Of a stretch of DNA of 64,000 bases, positions 4,001-56,977 are shown piece by piece. Source of the stretch: Escherichia coli (GTDB lineage Bacteria; Pseudomonadota; Gammaproteobacteria; Enterobacterales; Enterobacteriaceae). The notes beneath the pieces were generated by a model, which was not told the origin of the DNA, ran no database searches, and saw only the letters and a list, made by a program, of their open reading frames with translations. The position numbers and the translations under genes are program-made. The stretch is from the NCBI RefSeq assembly GCF_044324875.1, contig NZ_CP172188.1. One strand, given 5' to 3'. Positions within the stretch are counted from its first letter, which is position 1. The number at the start of each line of letters is the position of its first letter.

Positions 4001-7000
4001 CGCCAGCGCCGTTATCGTTCAGCGCATGAACATGATCCCGTCGTCAAATTGGCGAACGGTCATCATGACAAAAGAGCAATTCGCGTCTATCCCGCTACGA
4101 GAAGAAACCATTGAGGAAAACTCACAGCAAGCGGTCTTTAATGCTGTGGAAATGGGGCGTCTTGACCTGGCATCTGGCAAACACCGTGACGCGCAGAAGA
4201 AGAACAAGATTAAGGACCAGGCCGCAAATACCGGTACAACGAAGAAGCAGAATATCCCGTACTTTGAGGATATGAACTTCGATAGCGTAATTGCCGACGA
4301 AGGGCATAACTACCGCAACTCCTTTAGCGCCGGGCGCGAAGCGGGGCAACTGGCATATTTGCCTAACCCGGCAGTATCCAAAATGGCCCGCGACATGGCT
4401 GTAAAAGCTGCGTACATGATGAAACGCAACAACGGGCGTGGTGTGGTTATGCTGACGGCAACACCGCTGGTGAACAGCCCGATTGATGCTTTCAACATGC
4501 TGTCTACTGTCATTCCGCAGGAAGAGTGGATGCGCATGGGTATTGTTACGCCGGATGATTTCGTTCGCGTGTTCGGTAAAACAGCCACAGTTCAGGTTCA
4601 GAAAATTTCCGGTGAGGTGGAAGAGAAGCAGGGACTGGTGGGCTTCCAGAACCTGGATGGTCTGCGTGGTATTTTCCATCGCTGGACTACTCTGAAGACT
4701 GCTGCGGACGTCGGGGCGACGGTAAAAATCCCTGATATTGTCGAGAATACCTTGCAGATCCCGATGACAGGAGAGCAAGAGGCCATTTACGAAGAACTTC
4801 GTAAGCGTGCACAGGAGTTAAGTAGTAAAGATGCGCTGACGGTCGATGAAAACGGGCATATCACAAACGAAAAACCGGATGATTTCATCTTCTCCATCAT
4901 CCGCGACATGGATAAGGTTGCTATAGATCCTGATCTGTATGCCAGTGCGATTACATTCCAGTTCCCCGTTGAGCTTGCAGACAAGGTAAAAGCTATTGCT
5001 GATGCCCTGCCAAAAGTAGCTGGCGGTAAAGTGGCAGATGATGTAGACGAGGCCGAAGAAGATGGCGCTGGTGGGCTGGTCAGTACGCGTACCAGCAAGG
5101 TAGTGAAGACCACCTTTAGCGAACATCCGTCGCATGTTGAAATACGTGCTGGCATTGAACTGGAAGCTGAAATACTGAAGGCCATTGCGGCTGCCGGTAT
5201 TGATATGCAGCAGGTATCACACCCCATCCCGCCGAAGTATGCCGCGCTGATCGAAAACCTTCGTGAAGGTCTGAAGAACGGTAAACAAATCGTCTTCATT
5301 GATGAAAAAGCCCAGCACCAGAAGCTGCGCCGTATTATTGCCAGTGCACTGCAAATGCCGGAGCAGGAGATAGGCATTATCAATGCGACGACAGTTAGCC
5401 AGGCTGGCGGCGTCAAGCTGAAGAAGGTGAATAAGCCGACTGAACCTACGCCAAATAAAAACGGTGAATACAAAGAAGGTGCATGGGAAACCTACTACAG
5501 CAAACTTGCCCAATATGAGGATTATCTCTCAGCTAAAAATGATGCTGGCCTTGAGGGCATGGAAGGTATTGCCGCCGACTATAACGAAGGTCGCACGCGC
5601 ATCATAATCTGTAACAAGAAGGCTGAAGTAGGTATTAACTTGCACATCGGGACAACCGATATCCACCATCTGACACTACCCTGGACTCCTGCCAGTATCG
5701 ACCAACGTAATGGGCGCGGCGCTCGGGTAGGCTCACCACAAGAAAAGGTCAATGTTCACTACTATTGTGGCAAAGGCACATTTGATGACTTCCGTCTGGA
5801 TACGCTGAAACGTAAGAAGGACTGGATCAATATGGTGATGACCTCCGACATGTCAGAGATCGCCAATGGTGATGCGGATGACGCAGATGAACGCGCCATT
5901 ATGCTGGCGGCAAATCCGGAAGAACGCCGTGCAATCATGAGTCGTCAGGCGCAAGAGCGTGAAGAACGTCTGAAACTGAAAGCCCTACGCGAAGCCAATA
6001 ATGCTCTCGATAACTACCTGAAAGCGGCGAATGCTGCCGGGAAAGATATCGGCATGATGGAGACAGAACTGAAAAGCGCGATGGAGCAGGTAGAGCATTA
6101 CCAGCGCAATCTTGACGACCTGATTAAAGCGGGGACGAACAGGAACGGGCAGAAATATGTTCTGGAACAGTTGCGAGACTACAGAAAACGTGTGCGGGAG
6201 CTACGCTTTGCGATCACCAGAGCTAAAGACGCTGACACCGTTATGAAACGTTCTCGTGGTGATCTGGAACGTGCGATTAAAGCCGGGGTTCTGGAGCTTG
6301 ATGCCGATGTATTGCAGAACCCACAGGAGTATGTACGCACTGAGAAAAATATCTTGTTGCACAAGGGCAGCCATTATCGCGCGATCATCGATGAGAATCA
6401 CAATACGACAGCAATTGTTCGTGTTACCGCCATTGATGCGGAAAGGGGCGGGTGTACGTGCCGCATATCCTGGCTGGATGTGGCTAGTCGTTACTCTCGT
6501 TCTCCGGGGACGGCATTATTTTTGCCCTTTAACCTGATAATTGAATCGGTAACCTTTGAAGAGGGAGTTGCAGAATCGCGTGAAACAGCTGCACGTGGTG
6601 TTCAATGCCACCAGCTATCAACAACACTTACGCGCGATCAGTTCTATGATGCTATTCGCAATGGGGTAATGAATGTCACTGCCGGGAAGCCTAGTAGAGT
6701 ATGGGGCGGTGGTTCAGCTATTAAATACTGGGCTTATCGCACCGATGATGGTCAGATTGCACTGTCATCGGCTTATGATGGCGTAATAGGTCAAAAAATC
6801 GGGCGAGCATCGGATATAGCGCCTGAGCGGTGGATTTACCCTGATGGCAACGATGAGGCGCTGAAGCGTGAAGTGGCAAAAATACAAGCCAGTGATAACC
6901 CGCTGAATGTCGTGGACGGCGAGGGATTCCTCCAGGCATTGTATGGATATGATTACATCCAGGGAATGCAGGCATGGGGGTCACAGGCCACGATGGATGA

Positions 7001-52090: not shown

Positions 52091-52740
52091 AGCGTAGAGC
52101 GCAAATTGTTGGAACTGTGCACCCGGCAGGGCTTATGCGTGCTCAGGTCCGTGTTTTACCAGACTGGAATGGCGTTCCTGATGACGATCTACCCTGGGCA
52201 GAATACCTGTTACCCATAGGTAACGCGTTTGTACCTACAGTAAAAGGCGACCTGGTATGGGTAGAGTTTCCTTATCTGGATGTTAATGGTCGAATTGATA
52301 CCAGACGCCCAATGATAGTTGGCGCAGCTCAGGATGCGCCTGGCGGAGTACCAAACGTCGCGCCGGAGGCGTCAGGCAATGGTAGCGGCTGGACGCCACC
52401 AGAAGTAGACGGAGCGCCTCCCCGCCCGCAATTTTCGGCGACAAAAGATTTCGTGATTCACCGCAACAATGTGCTCGAAGTGCGAACGGCTGGCGGTGGA
52501 TATGAAATAGCGAATACGGCAGCAGGCTCAAGGATTGGAATGAATGAATCAGGGCAGATATACATCATTGGTCCGGCTGATGTAGTAGTGAATGCGGGAG
52601 GGAGTGTTAACGTCAAATCAGCCGATAACATCAGCGTTAATGGCAAAAACATTACTGTGACAGCCGACGAAAATATTGATTTCAAGGCTGGAGGCACCTT
52701 CCAGGCTATCGCAAGCAACTTTGATTTCAAGAAGGGATAG
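52087..52740 (+). CDS. baseplate spike protein (gpV / Mu gp45-like OB-fold)
   Basis: N-terminal GTVHPAGLMRAQVRVLPDWNGVPDDDLPWAEYLLPIGNAFVPTVKGDLVWVEFPYLDVNG resembles gpV family. Confidence 0.55.
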   Translation: MKRRAQIVGTVHPAGLMRAQVRVLPDWNGVPDDDLPWAEYLLPIGNAFVPTVKGDLVWVEFPYLDVNGRIDTRRPMIVGAAQDAPGGVPNVAPEASGNGSGWTPPEVDGAPPRPQFSATKDFVIHRNNVLEVRTAGGGYEIANTAAGSRIGMNESGQIYIIGPADVVVNAGGSVNVKSADNISVNGKNITVTADENIDFKAGGTFQAIASNFDFKKG

Positions 52741-52750
52741 AAAACACATC

Positions 52751-52792
52751 CAATTGTGTTAGATAATTGAACAGAATTTTCTAACACAATTG
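52751..52792. promoter_or_regulatory. palindromic operator-like site upstream of rdgC
   Basis: CAATTGTGTTAGA ... TCTAACACAATTG, perfect 13-bp inverted arms. Confidence 0.6.
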
Positions 52793-52799
52793 GTGAAAC

Positions 52800-53705
52800 A
52801 TGAGATCAGTCGCTTTCAAAAACATCTTCATCTATCGTCTTTCACGTGAAGTTAACTGGAGTGCCGCAGAAGTATCCGATGCTCTTAGCAAATTCGTGTT
52901 TACTCCTTGCGGTTCTCAGGACACAGCTAAAGTCGGTTGGACACCTGTTCTTGGTGACAACCTCACCCATGAATACCAGGGTTTTCTGCTAATACAGCAT
53001 AAGCGAGAAGAAAAAATTCTCCCCTCGCAGGTGCTCAAGGAAGAGTTGCAGAAAAAAGTCCTGAAACTCGAAGAAGAGCAAGCCCGCAAGCTGAAGAAAA
53101 CGGAAAGAGACAGTCTTAAAGATGAAGTCCTGCATTCCCTTTTGCCTCGCGCGTTCACGAGAAAATCACTCGCCAAAATCCTGATCGACCGCAGCAACCA
53201 TCTGGTATTCGTTGAGGCAAGCAGCGCCAAAAAGGCAGAGGACCAGCTGGCTTTATTGCGAAAATCGCTCGGCAGCCTGCCTGTCATTCCATTCACACCA
53301 CGCGAACCGCTGGAAATTACAATGACCGAGTGGTTTAAAAACGGCTTCCCTGCCGGATTTACAGCAGGTGAAGACGCCACATTAAAGGGTCTGCTCGATA
53401 ATGGTGGTGCCGTTCGCTGCAACAAAGTTGATCTACAGTCCGACGAGATTATGTCTCACATTGAGGCGGGGAAAGTAGCTACGACCGTTGCAATTAACTG
53501 GATGGAACGCGCGTCGTTCAGAGTCAACGATGATATGAGTATCAAAGCCCTGACATTCTGTGATGATCTCTATGACCAGAACGACGATATCGACCGGGAG
53601 GATGTAGCACAACGATTTGATGCTGATTTCGTGCTCTTTACGGGCGAATTATCTGCACTGTTTAACGCGCTGGTGGAGGCCATTGGCGGTGAAGCAGAAC
53701 GATAA
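52800..53705 (+). CDS. rdgC: RdgC recombination-associated protein
   Basis: 301 aa; near-colinear with E. coli RdgC ([61 protein letters not shown]). Confidence 0.9.
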
Positions 53706-53718
53706 TAACCGACAGCTT

Positions 53719-54369
53719 GTTGTGAGTCTTTGTGATTTTACGGGGGCAATGGTTGCCCCCTGGCTGGAATACGGTGTCGATGCCGCTATCGTCGATCCAC
53801 AGCACTTATCGACCAGTGACGAGCGGATGCAATCAGGTGCCGTTCTGACGCGTATTAGTGCGATCATCGATAGCGATGAAGTATACGCTTTTCTTCGTAA
53901 GAATTTGCAGCGCATCGTGTTTCTGGCCGGGTTCCCACCGTGTACTGACCTGGCTGTTTCCGGCGCGCGCTGGTTTTCTGACAAGGCTAATAAAGATCCG
54001 GTTTTCCAGTTCAAAGCAATGCAGGTTGTCTGGCAGTGTTACGACATTGCAAAGATGATTGGTTGCCCGTACATGATTGAAAACCCGGTCAGCCAAATAT
54101 CGACATTCTGGCGTAAACCTGATCACATCTTCCATCCTTACCACTTCACTGCATATTGCAAGGAAGACAATTACACCAAAAAAACATGCCTCTGGAGCGG
54201 GCAAGGCTTTGTCATGCCTGATGCCCTAATGGACGAATCATTAGGCAAGCCAGATAACAGAATCCATACCGCGCCACCTGGACCTGAAAGGGCTAATTTT
54301 CGAAGTGCTACTCCGCATGGATTCGCAAAGGCAGTTTTCGAAGCGAATAAGGGGGTGCTCTATGAGTAA
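53719..54369 (+). CDS. compact C5-cytosine-methyltransferase-like protein (start uncertain, GTG/TTG near 53719)
   Basis: Motif-IV-like FLAGFPPCTDLAVSGA (Pro-Cys) and motif-VI-like IENPV; no clear target-recognition domain. Confidence 0.4.
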   Translation, partial: VVSLCDFTGAMVAPWLEYGVDAAIVDPQHLSTSDERMQSGAVLTRISAIIDSDEVYAFLRKNLQRIVFLAGFPPCTDLAVSGARWFSDKANKDPVFQFKAMQVVWQCYDIAKMIGCPYMIENPVSQISTFWRKPDHIFHPYHFTAYCKEDNYTKKTCLWSGQGFVMPDALMDESLGKPDNRIHTAPPGPERANFRSATPHGFAKAVFEANKGVLYE

Positions 54370-55267
54370 ATCTATAGCAAGCATAGCCATAGAAAAACAG
54401 GATACGATGGCTGAAATTAGCTATATGCGCACCATTCGGACTCAGGATGAATATGAGCGCCCGATCTTCAAATGGGTAGGCGGTAAATTCTCAGAGTTGC
54501 CTACAGTGCTTGAGCATCTACCACACGGCAAGCGGTTAATAGAACCATTCGTTGGTGGCGGTTCCGTATTTACAAATGCAGGATTTCGCCACAACCTGCT
54601 TAATGATATTAACGGTGACCTGATTAACTTCTATCAGACATTGCAGCGAGAAGGACATTCGCTCGTCACGCTGTCATATAGTTTTTTCCAAAATTACAAC
54701 AACGCTGACGCTTACCTCGAAGTGCGTGAGGCATTTAACAGAGGAAAGTATGACCAGCTACATCATGCTGCCGCCTTTTTGTACCTTAATCGGCACTGTT
54801 TTAATGGCGTAACGCGGTACAACCAAAATGGCGAGTTCAACGTGGGGTATGGCAAATACAAAGCGCCCTACTTCCCACATGCAGAGATGGAGGCATTTTT
54901 GGCTGATGACGTACTCAAAAACACGTCCTTTGTATCAGGTGACTTTGCTGGCGTCATCGAGGCGGCTGGTGAAGGCGATGTGATTTTTTGCGATCCGCCG
55001 TATGAACCGCTGCCGGATACAGAAGGGTTTACCAGTTATTCAGGAAATAGCTTCCGTTTCGACGAACAGAAACGGCTGGTATCTCTATTGGTGGAAGCCC
55101 ACCAGCGCGGCGCTAAGGTAGTGATAACAAATAGTGGTGCGCCAAACATCCGTGAACTATATGAAGGAAACGGGTTTAAAGTACATCATATGGCAGCCAG
55201 ACGGTCGGTTTCCTGCAAGGCGTCAACACGTGTAGTTGCTAACGATATAATTGCAATAATGAAGTAA
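54362..55267 (+). CDS. dam: DNA adenine methyltransferase (Dam family)
   Basis: FKWVGGK ... EPFVGGGSVF (SAM binding) and catalytic DPPY; overlaps upstream gene by 8 nt. Confidence 0.85.
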   Translation: MSKSIASIAIEKQDTMAEISYMRTIRTQDEYERPIFKWVGGKFSELPTVLEHLPHGKRLIEPFVGGGSVFTNAGFRHNLLNDINGDLINFYQTLQREGHSLVTLSYSFFQNYNNADAYLEVREAFNRGKYDQLHHAAAFLYLNRHCFNGVTRYNQNGEFNVGYGKYKAPYFPHAEMEAFLADDVLKNTSFVSGDFAGVIEAAGEGDVIFCDPPYEPLPDTEGFTSYSGNSFRFDEQKRLVSLLVEAHQRGAKVVITNSGAPNIRELYEGNGFKVHHMAARRSVSCKASTRVVANDIIAIMK

Positions 55268-55297
55268 AAAACGCCGCAGTAGCGGCGTTTACTTTTT
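55266..55297. terminator. bidirectional rho-independent terminator between dam and glnS
   Basis: AAAAACGCCGCAGTAGCGGCGTTTACTTTTTC. Confidence 0.7.
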
Positions 55298-55315: not shown

Positions 55316-56977
55316 TTAACCTAACTTCGCCCAGGTATCACGCAGCCCAACGGTGCGGTTAAATACCGGTTTTTCCGCCGTAGAATGGCGGCTATCGAGG
55401 CAGAAGTAACCTTCACGCTCAAACTGGAATGCTTTACCCGCAACCGCATCTTTCAGCGACGGTTCAGCAAAGCCCTGTTTGATCACCAGCGATTCCGGGT
55501 TAATCACCGACAGGAAATCATCCGCAGCACCTGGGTTAGGCACGCTGAACAGACGATCGTACAGGCGGATTTCAACCGGCAGCGCATGTGCCGCGCTCAC
55601 CCAGTGAATAACGCCTTTCACTTTACGACCATCTGCCGGATCTTTGCTTAAGGTGTCGGCGTCATAAGTACAGAAGATGGTGGTGATATTGCCTTCGGCA
55701 TCTTTCTCCACGCGTTCAGCCTTAATGACGTAAGCATTACGCAGACGCACTTCTTTACCCAGCACCAGACGTTTGTACTGCTTGTTAGCTTCTTCGCGGA
55801 AATCGGCGCGGTCGATCCAAATCTCACCGCTAAACGGCACCTGACGGCTACCCATTTCCGGTTTGTTCGGATGGTTCGGCATGGTGACCATTTCGCCTTC
55901 GCCCTGGTAGTTTTCGATAACCAGTTTCACCGGATCGATAACCGCCATTGCGCGCGGCGCATTTTCGTTGAGATCTTCACGGATGCAGGATTCCAGCGAC
56001 GCCATCTCAATGGTGTTGTCCTGCTTGGTCACGCCGATGCGTTTGCAGAACTCACGAATAGAAGCCGCAGTGTAACCACGACGACGCAGACCGGAAATGG
56101 TCGGCATACGCGGGTCATCCCAGCCTTCAACGTGTTTGTCGGTCACCAGCAGGTTCAGCTTACGCTTGGACATCACGGTGTATTCCAGATTCAGGCGCGA
56201 GAATTCGTACTGGCGCGGGTGAACAGGAATGGTGATGTTGTCCAGCACCCAGTCGTACAGGCGACGGTTGTCCTGGAACTCAAGCGTACACAGAGAGTGC
56301 GTAATACCTTCCAGCGCATCGCTGATGCAATGGGTGAAGTCGTACATCGGGTAGATGCACCACTTGTTGCCAGTCTGGTGGTGTTCAGCAAATTTAATGC
56401 GGTACAGCACCGGATCGCGCATTACGATAAATGGCGACGCCATGTCGATTTTCGCACGCAGGCAGGCTTTACCTTCTTCAAAACCACCGGCACGCATTTT
56501 TTCGAACAGCGCCAGGTTCTCTTCAACGCTGCGATCGCGGTACGGGCTGTTTTTACCCGGCTGCGTCAGGGTGCCGCGGTATTCGCGGATCTGTTCCGGC
56601 GTCAGTTCGTCAACATACGCCAGGCCTTTGTTGATCAGTTCAACAGCATAGGCGTGGAGCTGATCAAAATAATCGGAGGAGTAACGGATGTTGCCAGACC
56701 AGTGAAAACCTAACCATTCAACGTCGTTTTTAATCGACTCGACGTACTCGATATCTTCTTTTACCGGGTTAGTGTCGTCGAAACGCAGGTTGCACTGGCC
56801 TTTATAGTCCTGGGCGATCCCGAAGTTCAGGCAGATAGATTTCGCATGACCAATATGCAGATAGCCATTCGGTTCCGGCGGGAAACGGGTATGTACTGTG
56901 GTGTGCTTACCACTGGCCAGATCTTCATCGATGATCTGACGAATAAAGTTAGTCGGGCGGGCTTCTGCCTCACTCAT
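55316..56977 (-). CDS. glnS: glutaminyl-tRNA synthetase
   Basis: 553 aa; class I HIGH (HIGHAKS) and KMSKS-type (VMSKRK) motifs; essentially colinear with enterobacterial GlnRS. Confidence 0.95.

Follow-up and report, generated by a model that had tools for sequence, protein, structure and literature searches.

The 64,000-nucleotide stretch of Escherichia coli contig NZ_CP172188.1 (assembly GCF_044324875.1) analyzed here, hereafter the window, represents a D6-like (P1-type) E. coli phage-plasmid and carries on its + strand a short open reading frame, ORF1 (53689-54369, 226 amino acids), that overlaps the start of a gene for an N6-adenine DNA methyltransferase, dam (54362-55267, 301 amino acids). 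Judged by its sequence, ORF1 is an intact member of a large, previously described family of compact phage cytosine-C5 DNA methyltransferases (phrog_757, the phage 'Dcm-like' proteins of about 215-240 amino acids), and by analogy with its studied relatives it is probably an active, S-adenosylmethionine (SAM)-dependent DNA cytosine-C5 methyltransferase. An initial annotation of this DNA had described a Dam-family gene preceded by a small frame resembling C5 methyltransferases, and both genes are indeed found on the + strand, within open frames at 53617-54369 and 54305-55267. The locus itself adds little that is new, as annotations of both genes exist for phage D6 and one member of the family has been studied by experiment.

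The assignment of ORF1 as C5-methyltransferase-like is supported by its predicted fold and by the conservation of its catalytic motifs. The AlphaFold2 model, built from a 74-sequence alignment, is a single compact domain with a predicted local distance difference test (pLDDT) score of 95.7 and a predicted template modelling score (pTM) of 0.91. In a Foldseek search of the Protein Data Bank (PDB) with this model, the top 50 matches were all catalytic domains of DNMT3A, DNMT3B or DNMT3C (best E 1.5e-5), and the modelled fold is that of a C5 methyltransferase catalytic domain, nearer to these enzymes than to other Rossmann-like proteins. Sequence identity to the DNMT3A and DNMT3B catalytic domains is only 10-14%. 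The eukaryotic DNMT3A and DNMT3B enzymes work as DNMT3L-assisted oligomers.

Within the modelled fold the equivalents of catalytic motifs IV and VI are both present. The FLAGFPPCTD and ENP stretches that had first drawn attention to the frame occupy residues 78-87 (counted from the GTG at 53689) and 131-133, respectively. The former includes the Pro-Cys pair of motif IV (P84-C85), with the codons for F82-P83-P84-C85 at 53932-53943 (+ strand) and that for Cys85, the predicted catalytic nucleophile, at 53941-53943. The latter, E131-N132-P133, encoded at 54079-54087 (+ strand), is assigned to motif VI (ENV) by conservation and alignment. Hidden Markov model (HMM) alignment to DNMT2 and hhalign alignment to P1 Dmt both placed PPC on (T/P)PC and ENP on ENV, and neither alignment was significant. 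Across 74 homologues that are 34-91% identical to ORF1, the residues D36, C85, E131, P133 and K164 are invariant (C85 and E131 in 74/74), and D16, F82, P83, N132 (69/74), R205, S206, T208 and P209 are nearly so. Asp36 lies at the end of strand 2, where it may correspond to the acidic residue of motif II. The conserved patterns of the family can be written LxDxTG, (V)D, FPPC(T), ENP, YxKxTCLW and RSxTPxGF.

ORF1 belongs to a family of considerable size. The translation from 53719 matches phrog_757, 'DNA methyltransferase', over residues 1-214 of 216 (E 2.2e-77), and in a set of 5.8 billion sequences more than 7000 homologous proteins were found, nearly all of them 206-258 amino acids long and without a precomputed Pfam domain; 1608 cluster representatives were retained at E<=0.001. 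Matches occur in 1590 phage records, including those of T1-like, rV5-like, RB49/JSE-like and Webervirus phages, whose labels vary from 'DNA methyltransferase' through 'Dcm-like C5 cytosine methyltransferase' to 'hypothetical protein'. At 226 amino acids ORF1 fits the single-domain size class of phrog_757 (about 210-240 amino acids). Comparison with the D6 orthologue gives 97% protein identity and a ratio of nonsynonymous to synonymous substitution rates (dN/dS) of 0.10, indicative of purifying selection; because of this ratio, the phrog_757 match and the number of homologues, ORF1 is not a chance open frame. Relative to two more distant P1/D6-like contigs (L011 and L009), between which and the window synonymous sites are saturated, ORF1 retains 70-72% amino acid identity, compared with 46-62% for rdgC and 45-61% for dam, and is better conserved than both neighbor genes. 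Inteins favor functionally critical sites, and one metagenomic homologue (P0266, 548 amino acids) is interrupted by a Hint/LAGLIDADG intein between GFPP and the catalytic cysteine (GFPP/C...HN/CTNL, with slashes at the splice junctions). As the intein sits exactly before this residue, the catalytic cysteine would double as the +1 extein nucleophile.

Evidence for enzymatic activity comes from homologues in the Drexlerviridae. Expressed alone from a plasmid, the Dcm protein of phage K42 is active: it raised 5-methylcytosine (5mC) in the multicopy single-stranded DNA (msDNA) of retron Ec86, as measured by LC-MS (liquid chromatography coupled to mass spectrometry), and it triggers Ec86 defense, while a quadruple mutant in which C82, E128, K175 and K176 were altered together did not raise 5mC (bioRxiv 10.1101/2023.08.16.553469). 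Phage KarlJaspers (Bas06), with a reported genome identity of 95.4% and the same 711-bp dcm length, was used as a proxy for K42. Its 'Dcm-like' protein, gp55, matches phrog_757 (E 6e-86) and is 36% identical to ORF1 over the full length (E 9e-42), with C82, E128, K175 and K176 aligning with C85, E131, K164 and K165 of ORF1. A second relative, gp52 of Pantoea phage AAS23, is 34% identical to ORF1 (E 4e-39). This protein was reported to have no conserved domain and an HHpred match to a Shigella C5 methyltransferase, and AAS23 DNA was concluded to be Dcm-methylated from a restriction-digest panel that included EcoRII (PMC8004638). A literature search for the methylome of an ORF1 family member returned nothing beyond the K42 and AAS23 reports. 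Like ORF1, these Drexlerviridae proteins (235-236 amino acids) belong to phrog_757, lack a Pfam domain, conserve the cysteine, the glutamate and the Lys-Lys pair, and have DNMT3A as their structural reference. They differ in a 14-residue insertion before YxKxTCLW and in the loop that joins motifs VIII and X. Their genes are solitary ones of lytic siphoviruses, uncoupled from dam, and the LC-MS and restriction-digest evidence pertains to them only.

Several observations weigh against the assignment of ORF1 as an active C5 methyltransferase. The motif I region reads L-x-D16-x-T-G19 rather than FxGxG (D16 in 70/74 and G19 in 62/74 homologues), and the Arg-x-Arg of motif VIII was not found in ORF1, where the corresponding strand has the sequence Y-T-K164-K165-T-C-L-W, with an invariant K164 and with Lys or Arg at position 165 in 54/74 homologues. 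Searches of ORF1 against Pfam, NCBIfam and PADLOC gave no matches. The proposed comparison with the C5 methyltransferase profile PF00145 came out negative at the sequence level, with nothing at E<=1 for ORF1 itself and matches for 4/74 homologues (best E 0.0039). When PDB sequences were searched with ORF1 alone or with a profile HMM, only noise came up (ornithine decarboxylase, E 0.3; DNMT2, E 0.52, the best profile match), such that no sequence-profile method ties ORF1 significantly to canonical C5 methyltransferases. Activity is extrapolated from homologues that are 34-36% identical and that differ from ORF1 in likely DNA-contact loops. Finally, the CCWGG target assigned to the K42 enzyme derives from mutation of the msDNA site in a dcm+ host rather than from a methylome (bioRxiv 10.1101/2023.08.16.553469). 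A family of more than 7000 proteins that is missed by Pfam, NCBIfam and PADLOC constitutes an annotation gap, and surveys of methylomes or defense evasion in E. coli phage-plasmids will overlook ORF1.

A further departure from canonical enzymes is the lack of a separate target-recognition domain (TRD), as the initial annotation had suspected. No TRD was found between motif VIII and motifs IX/X, where ORF1 has 40 residues from K164 to R205. Of these, residues 172-204 (54202-54300, + strand), between the motif VIII equivalent (K164) and the motif X equivalent (R205-S206-x-T208-P209), are modelled as coil with almost no regular secondary structure according to DSSP, at block-mean pLDDT values of 93-98. 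Across the family the K164-R205 spacer is rich in insertions and deletions and measures 36-68 residues (median 40), with an additional 28 amino acids in the homologues P0006 and P0009. The distant Drexlerviridae homologues point weakly to CCWGG as the target of ORF1, and the specificity need not be shared since those proteins differ in both the insertion and the VIII-X loop. Given the absence of a TRD, the target could be very short or nearly non-specific, and a tentative reading, judged less likely than not, is that ORF1 acts as a minimal 'blanket' C5 methylase that reads a motif of 2-3 bp, or almost none, and provides broad cover against restriction. The K42 homologue is reported to be toxic and to raise 5mC even where the host possesses a Dcm of its own, observations compatible with a specificity broader than CCWGG (bioRxiv 10.1101/2023.08.16.553469). 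Were ORF1 such an enzyme, it might also trigger 5mC-sensing defenses such as retron Ec86 or McrBC, and co-translation could link its action to that of Dam in the D6 lineage.

By analogy with characterized C5 methyltransferases, a reaction scheme can be proposed in which ORF1 keeps the catalytic core of Dcm and the DNMT enzymes, with a loop of about 40 residues where others carry the TRD. The target cytosine would be flipped out of the helix, the thiolate of Cys85 would attack C6, and Glu131 would protonate N3; the methyl group would then pass from SAM to C5, and β-elimination would free the enzyme. In this scheme the D16-x-T-G19 loop and Asp36 would bind SAM, with Lys164 and Lys165 standing in for the arginines of motif VIII. 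With E. coli Dcm and M.HhaI-type enzymes (PF00145) ORF1 shares the catalytic fold, the Pro-Cys nucleophile, the Glu-Asn of motif VI and the C-terminal motif X helix; unlike them, it has neither a TRD nor a small domain, falls below the PF00145 threshold and is diverged in motifs I and VIII.

The downstream gene encodes an N6-adenine methyltransferase. The Dam protein matches PF02086 over profile positions 1-252 of 253 (E 1.9e-56, 192 bits against a cut-off of 22) and TIGR00571 with 249 bits (cut-off 115), and its FCDPPYEP segment at residues 209-216 carries the DPPY catalytic motif (codons 54992-55003). The score against NF008152, the equivalog profile for E. coli Dam, falls short of the cut-off (241 versus 441). 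By these profile matches the protein is a complete D12-class enzyme and a member of the Dam family, not a Dam of the host type. It is identical in amino acid sequence to D6 orf63 (100%, dN/dS 0.04), its best PADLOC match is an orphan methyltransferase (E 8e-85), and residues 478-753 of P1 Dmt align with it at 69% identity (E 5e-146).

The initial annotation described P1 Dmt as a single bifunctional protein, which is accurate: its 754 amino acids contain PF00145 in the N-terminal and PF02086 in the C-terminal part. Dmt occupies the same locus in P1, where hrdC is followed by dmt, and likewise combines a C5-type activity with an orthologous N6-adenine methyltransferase. P1 encodes one polypeptide, whereas here there are two genes in different reading frames. 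The C5 domain of Dmt is a canonical PF00145 domain of about 470 amino acids with some 235 residues between motifs VIII (QRRRR) and X (GNS). Alignment of ORF1 to this half of Dmt revealed no detectable similarity: the best BLASTP match to the N-terminal 476 residues had an E value of 2.8, and hhalign of the ORF1 family against the Dmt N-terminal domains gave a probability of 0.16 with a shallow template (effective number of sequences 1.2, close P1 relatives only). In PHROGs, moreover, the N-terminal half of Dmt is assigned to phrog_116 and phrog_363. From its sequence, the C5 module that the D6 lineage carries at the position of P1 dmt is a different, TRD-less one and a non-orthologous replacement. 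P1 and D6 provide a clear instance of module exchange at one locus: Dam is paired either with a canonical C5 domain that has a TRD, to which it is fused, or with a TRD-less protein encoded by a separate gene. Among P1-like elements two further forms of the Dmt N-terminal domain were observed. P0271 (473 amino acids, 123 member sequences) consists of this C5 domain alone, 99% identical and matching PF00145 only, and P0366 (740 amino acids) is a variant of the domain with an intein (Hint and LAGLIDADG). Given these two proteins, a genuinely split or interrupted P1-type Dmt may exist elsewhere.

D6 is a P1-like plasmid prophage. Between 52700 and 55400 the window shares 96% nucleotide identity with Escherichia phage D6 (MF356679); with E. 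coli plasmids of about 90 kb, e.g., pAPEC201603, the identity reaches 99.6%. The gene order rdgC-orf64-orf63-glnS of D6 and its 8-nucleotide overlap are the same as here; nothing of substance differs, and the window represents a variant plasmid. The D6 record describes orf65 as RdgC family, 'similar to P1 hrdC', orf64, the orthologue of ORF1, as 'putative DNA-cytosine methylase', and orf63, the orthologue of dam, as 'site-specific DNA-adenine methylase; similar to C-term half of P1 dmt only'. Three more contigs of P1/D6-like type (L009, L010 and L011) likewise have rdgC, ORF1 and dam in succession, and their ORF1 is 64-72% identical to that of the window; the overlap between ORF1 and dam is 4 nucleotides in L011 and 19 nucleotides in L009.

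From this arrangement ORF1 appears to be transcribed together with rdgC and dam and is probably also translationally coupled to both. For ORF1 and dam, coupling is suggested by the overlap and by a candidate Shine-Dalgarno sequence, AAGGGGG (54349-54355, + strand), just before the dam ATG. ORF1 and Dam would then form a two-gene functional counterpart of the fused P1 Dmt. By analogy, the pair likely serves in orphan methylation of the phage-plasmid's own DNA, in keeping with which no restriction gene adjoins ORF1, the neighbors being rdgC and a convergent glnS. Methylation at C5 may protect against restriction, and, as in P1, methylation by Dam may serve GATC-dependent steps such as packaging and replication.

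The closest competitor to an independently acting ORF1, and in our view an unlikely one, is that ORF1 needs Dam: the two proteins would form a true two-subunit bifunctional enzyme in which ORF1 borrows the DNA binding of Dam and methylates cytosines in or next to GATC. This would accommodate the lack of a recognizable TRD, the overlap of stop and start codons in four lineages, the fusion of a C5 domain to an orthologous Dam in P1 and a natural fusion protein, P0121 (563 amino acids; L004, 218-1909), in which an ORF1-like domain (57% identity) with a 28-amino acid insertion in the TRD-equivalent loop is joined through a linker of about 50 amino acids to a Dam domain (48% identity). The gene for P0121 is not beside rdgC, and it rests on a single assembled contig of 2 kb, where an assembly error is possible. 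Against dependence on Dam, K42 Dcm is active alone, and outside the P1/D6-like elements, in the contexts inspected, the genes of ORF1 family members are solitary or at a distance from any Dam. KarlJaspers has Dam at 33.0 kb and, on the opposite strand, the Dcm-like gene at 40.1 kb; a similar layout is seen in PaulSarasin, AAS23 and the lambdoid contig L012. The association with Dam therefore seems to be specific to this lineage. Less credible than any other reading considered is that a frameshift or nonsense mutation divided a P1-type Dmt gene into ORF1 and dam, a split methyltransferase being one of the options raised in the initial annotation. The shared position after hrdC/rdgC, the similarity of Dam to the C-terminal part of Dmt and a database flag on dam as 'incomplete, missing N-terminus' speak for such a split. 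ORF1, however, has no counterpart in Dmt residues 1-476 and belongs to another PHROG, it measures 226 rather than 476 amino acids and terminates where members of its family normally do, dam is in a different frame, and the arrangement is conserved down to 64-72% identity; the flag itself is an artefact that arises when dam is compared with the longer Dmt. The alternative of a 'reduced methyltransferase' came closest of those offered, although the reduction is an old property of the whole family and not a local event.

It is also very improbable that ORF1 is an inactive remnant or pseudo-enzyme, a decayed longer C5 methyltransferase that has lost its TRD. ORF1 falls short of even the smallest familiar C5 methyltransferases by about 100 residues, has no Pfam match and is labelled 'hypothetical protein' by the NCBI annotation pipeline, all of which such decay could explain. 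The short length, however, is common to the entire family; the catalytic cysteine and glutamate and the proposed SAM-binding aspartate are invariant; ORF1 is under purifying selection and better conserved than its neighbors; its model is compact and confident; an intein has inserted at the catalytic cysteine of P0266, as is typical of functionally critical sites; and a homologue makes 5mC. Slightly less probable still is that ORF1 transfers a group other than methyl, for example carboxymethyl, which the phage enzyme CmoX transfers, with the carboxy-SAM produced by E. coli CmoA as the donor. This natural cytosine C5-carboxymethyltransferase, a close structural neighbor of ORF1, is defined by SPPC together with an Arg replacing the Asn of motif X (N304 in M.HhaI, R350 in CmoX) (PMC12783734). 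Motif X of the CmoX gene of phage S-B43 reads G-R-M-V-P-P. ORF1 has the PPC, which is also found in DNMT2, and by alignment appears to lack the motif X Arg: the family variants G-S-I-T-P and R-N-A-T-P put Ser206, not Arg205, at the Asn/Arg position, and position 205 is Gly in 4/74 family members. There is no cmoA- or cmoY-like gene adjoining ORF1. With this register and the 5mC produced by K42 Dcm, carboxymethyl transfer is improbable. A similarly slight chance is given to RNA (e.g., tRNA, as for DNMT2) rather than DNA being the substrate. An ORF1 that methylates DNA cytosines at C5 without the assistance of Dam remains the preferred interpretation.

The boundaries of the two genes required some revision. 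The initial annotation placed the start of ORF1 at 53719, where the codon is GTT and not a start codon, and gave a length of 217 amino acids; the frame from 53719 yields 216 amino acids. The best start, as read from the sequence, is the GTG at 53689: a Shine-Dalgarno sequence, GGAGG (53675-53679, + strand), lies 9 nucleotides before it and is identical in D6, the D6 record starts at this codon, and the N-termini of homologues match. With this start ORF1 overlaps the 3' end of rdgC by 17 nucleotides. The 8-nucleotide overlap described between ORF1 and dam is exact: ATGAGTAA at 54362-54369 (+ strand) contains the dam ATG (54362) and ends with the ORF1 TAA (54367-54369), and the D6 junction is identical. 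An alternative dam start at ATG 54407 (Met16), a methionine conserved in a relative, is possible; it would leave a gap of 37 nucleotides and no overlap. In a related plasmid record (L002, NZ_CP127300.1), the Prokaryotic Genome Annotation Pipeline (PGAP) lists ORF1 at 5050-5670 as a 'hypothetical protein' and dam at 5750-6568 (window 54449) as a pseudogene, 'incomplete, missing N-terminus'; for the other RefSeq plasmids listed, the two products are likewise named 'hypothetical protein' and 'DNA adenine methylase'. The PGAP start of ORF1, ATG 53749, cuts off the conserved LCDxTG motif. The pseudogene flag on dam is, by its open frame, an artefact and the gene is intact, since the comparison was made with the longer fused Dmt and the frame spans the whole of PF02086 and TIGR00571.

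The first gene of the rdgC-ORF1-dam string is the rdgC/hrdC homologue (52800-53705, + strand, 301 amino acids; PF04381 RdgC, E 5.8e-103). A promoter scan found only a weak sigma-70-like site before rdgC (52738-52767), not above chance. In P1 the uhr-hrdC-dmt operon is under C1 control. With up to 3 mismatches allowed, the P1 C1 operator consensus, ATTGCTCTAATAAATTT, is matched nowhere in the 64-kb window, and P1-style C1 control of the rdgC-ORF1-dam operon is not supported; in the absence of an operator match, regulation would differ from P1 in this element. Downstream of dam, a GC-rich hairpin (55269-55290) separates the stop codon of this gene from that of glnS. It has a perfect 9-bp stem with 6 GC pairs, is flanked on both strands by T-runs and is, from its sequence, likely a bidirectional terminator shared by the two genes. 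The glnS gene (55316-56977, - strand; D6 orf62) is convergent with dam and encodes a full-length glutaminyl-tRNA synthetase of 553 amino acids. It is about 97% identical in nucleotide sequence to the chromosomal glnS of E. coli and has 80 matching places on plasmids, so that many hosts would carry a second copy of glnS.

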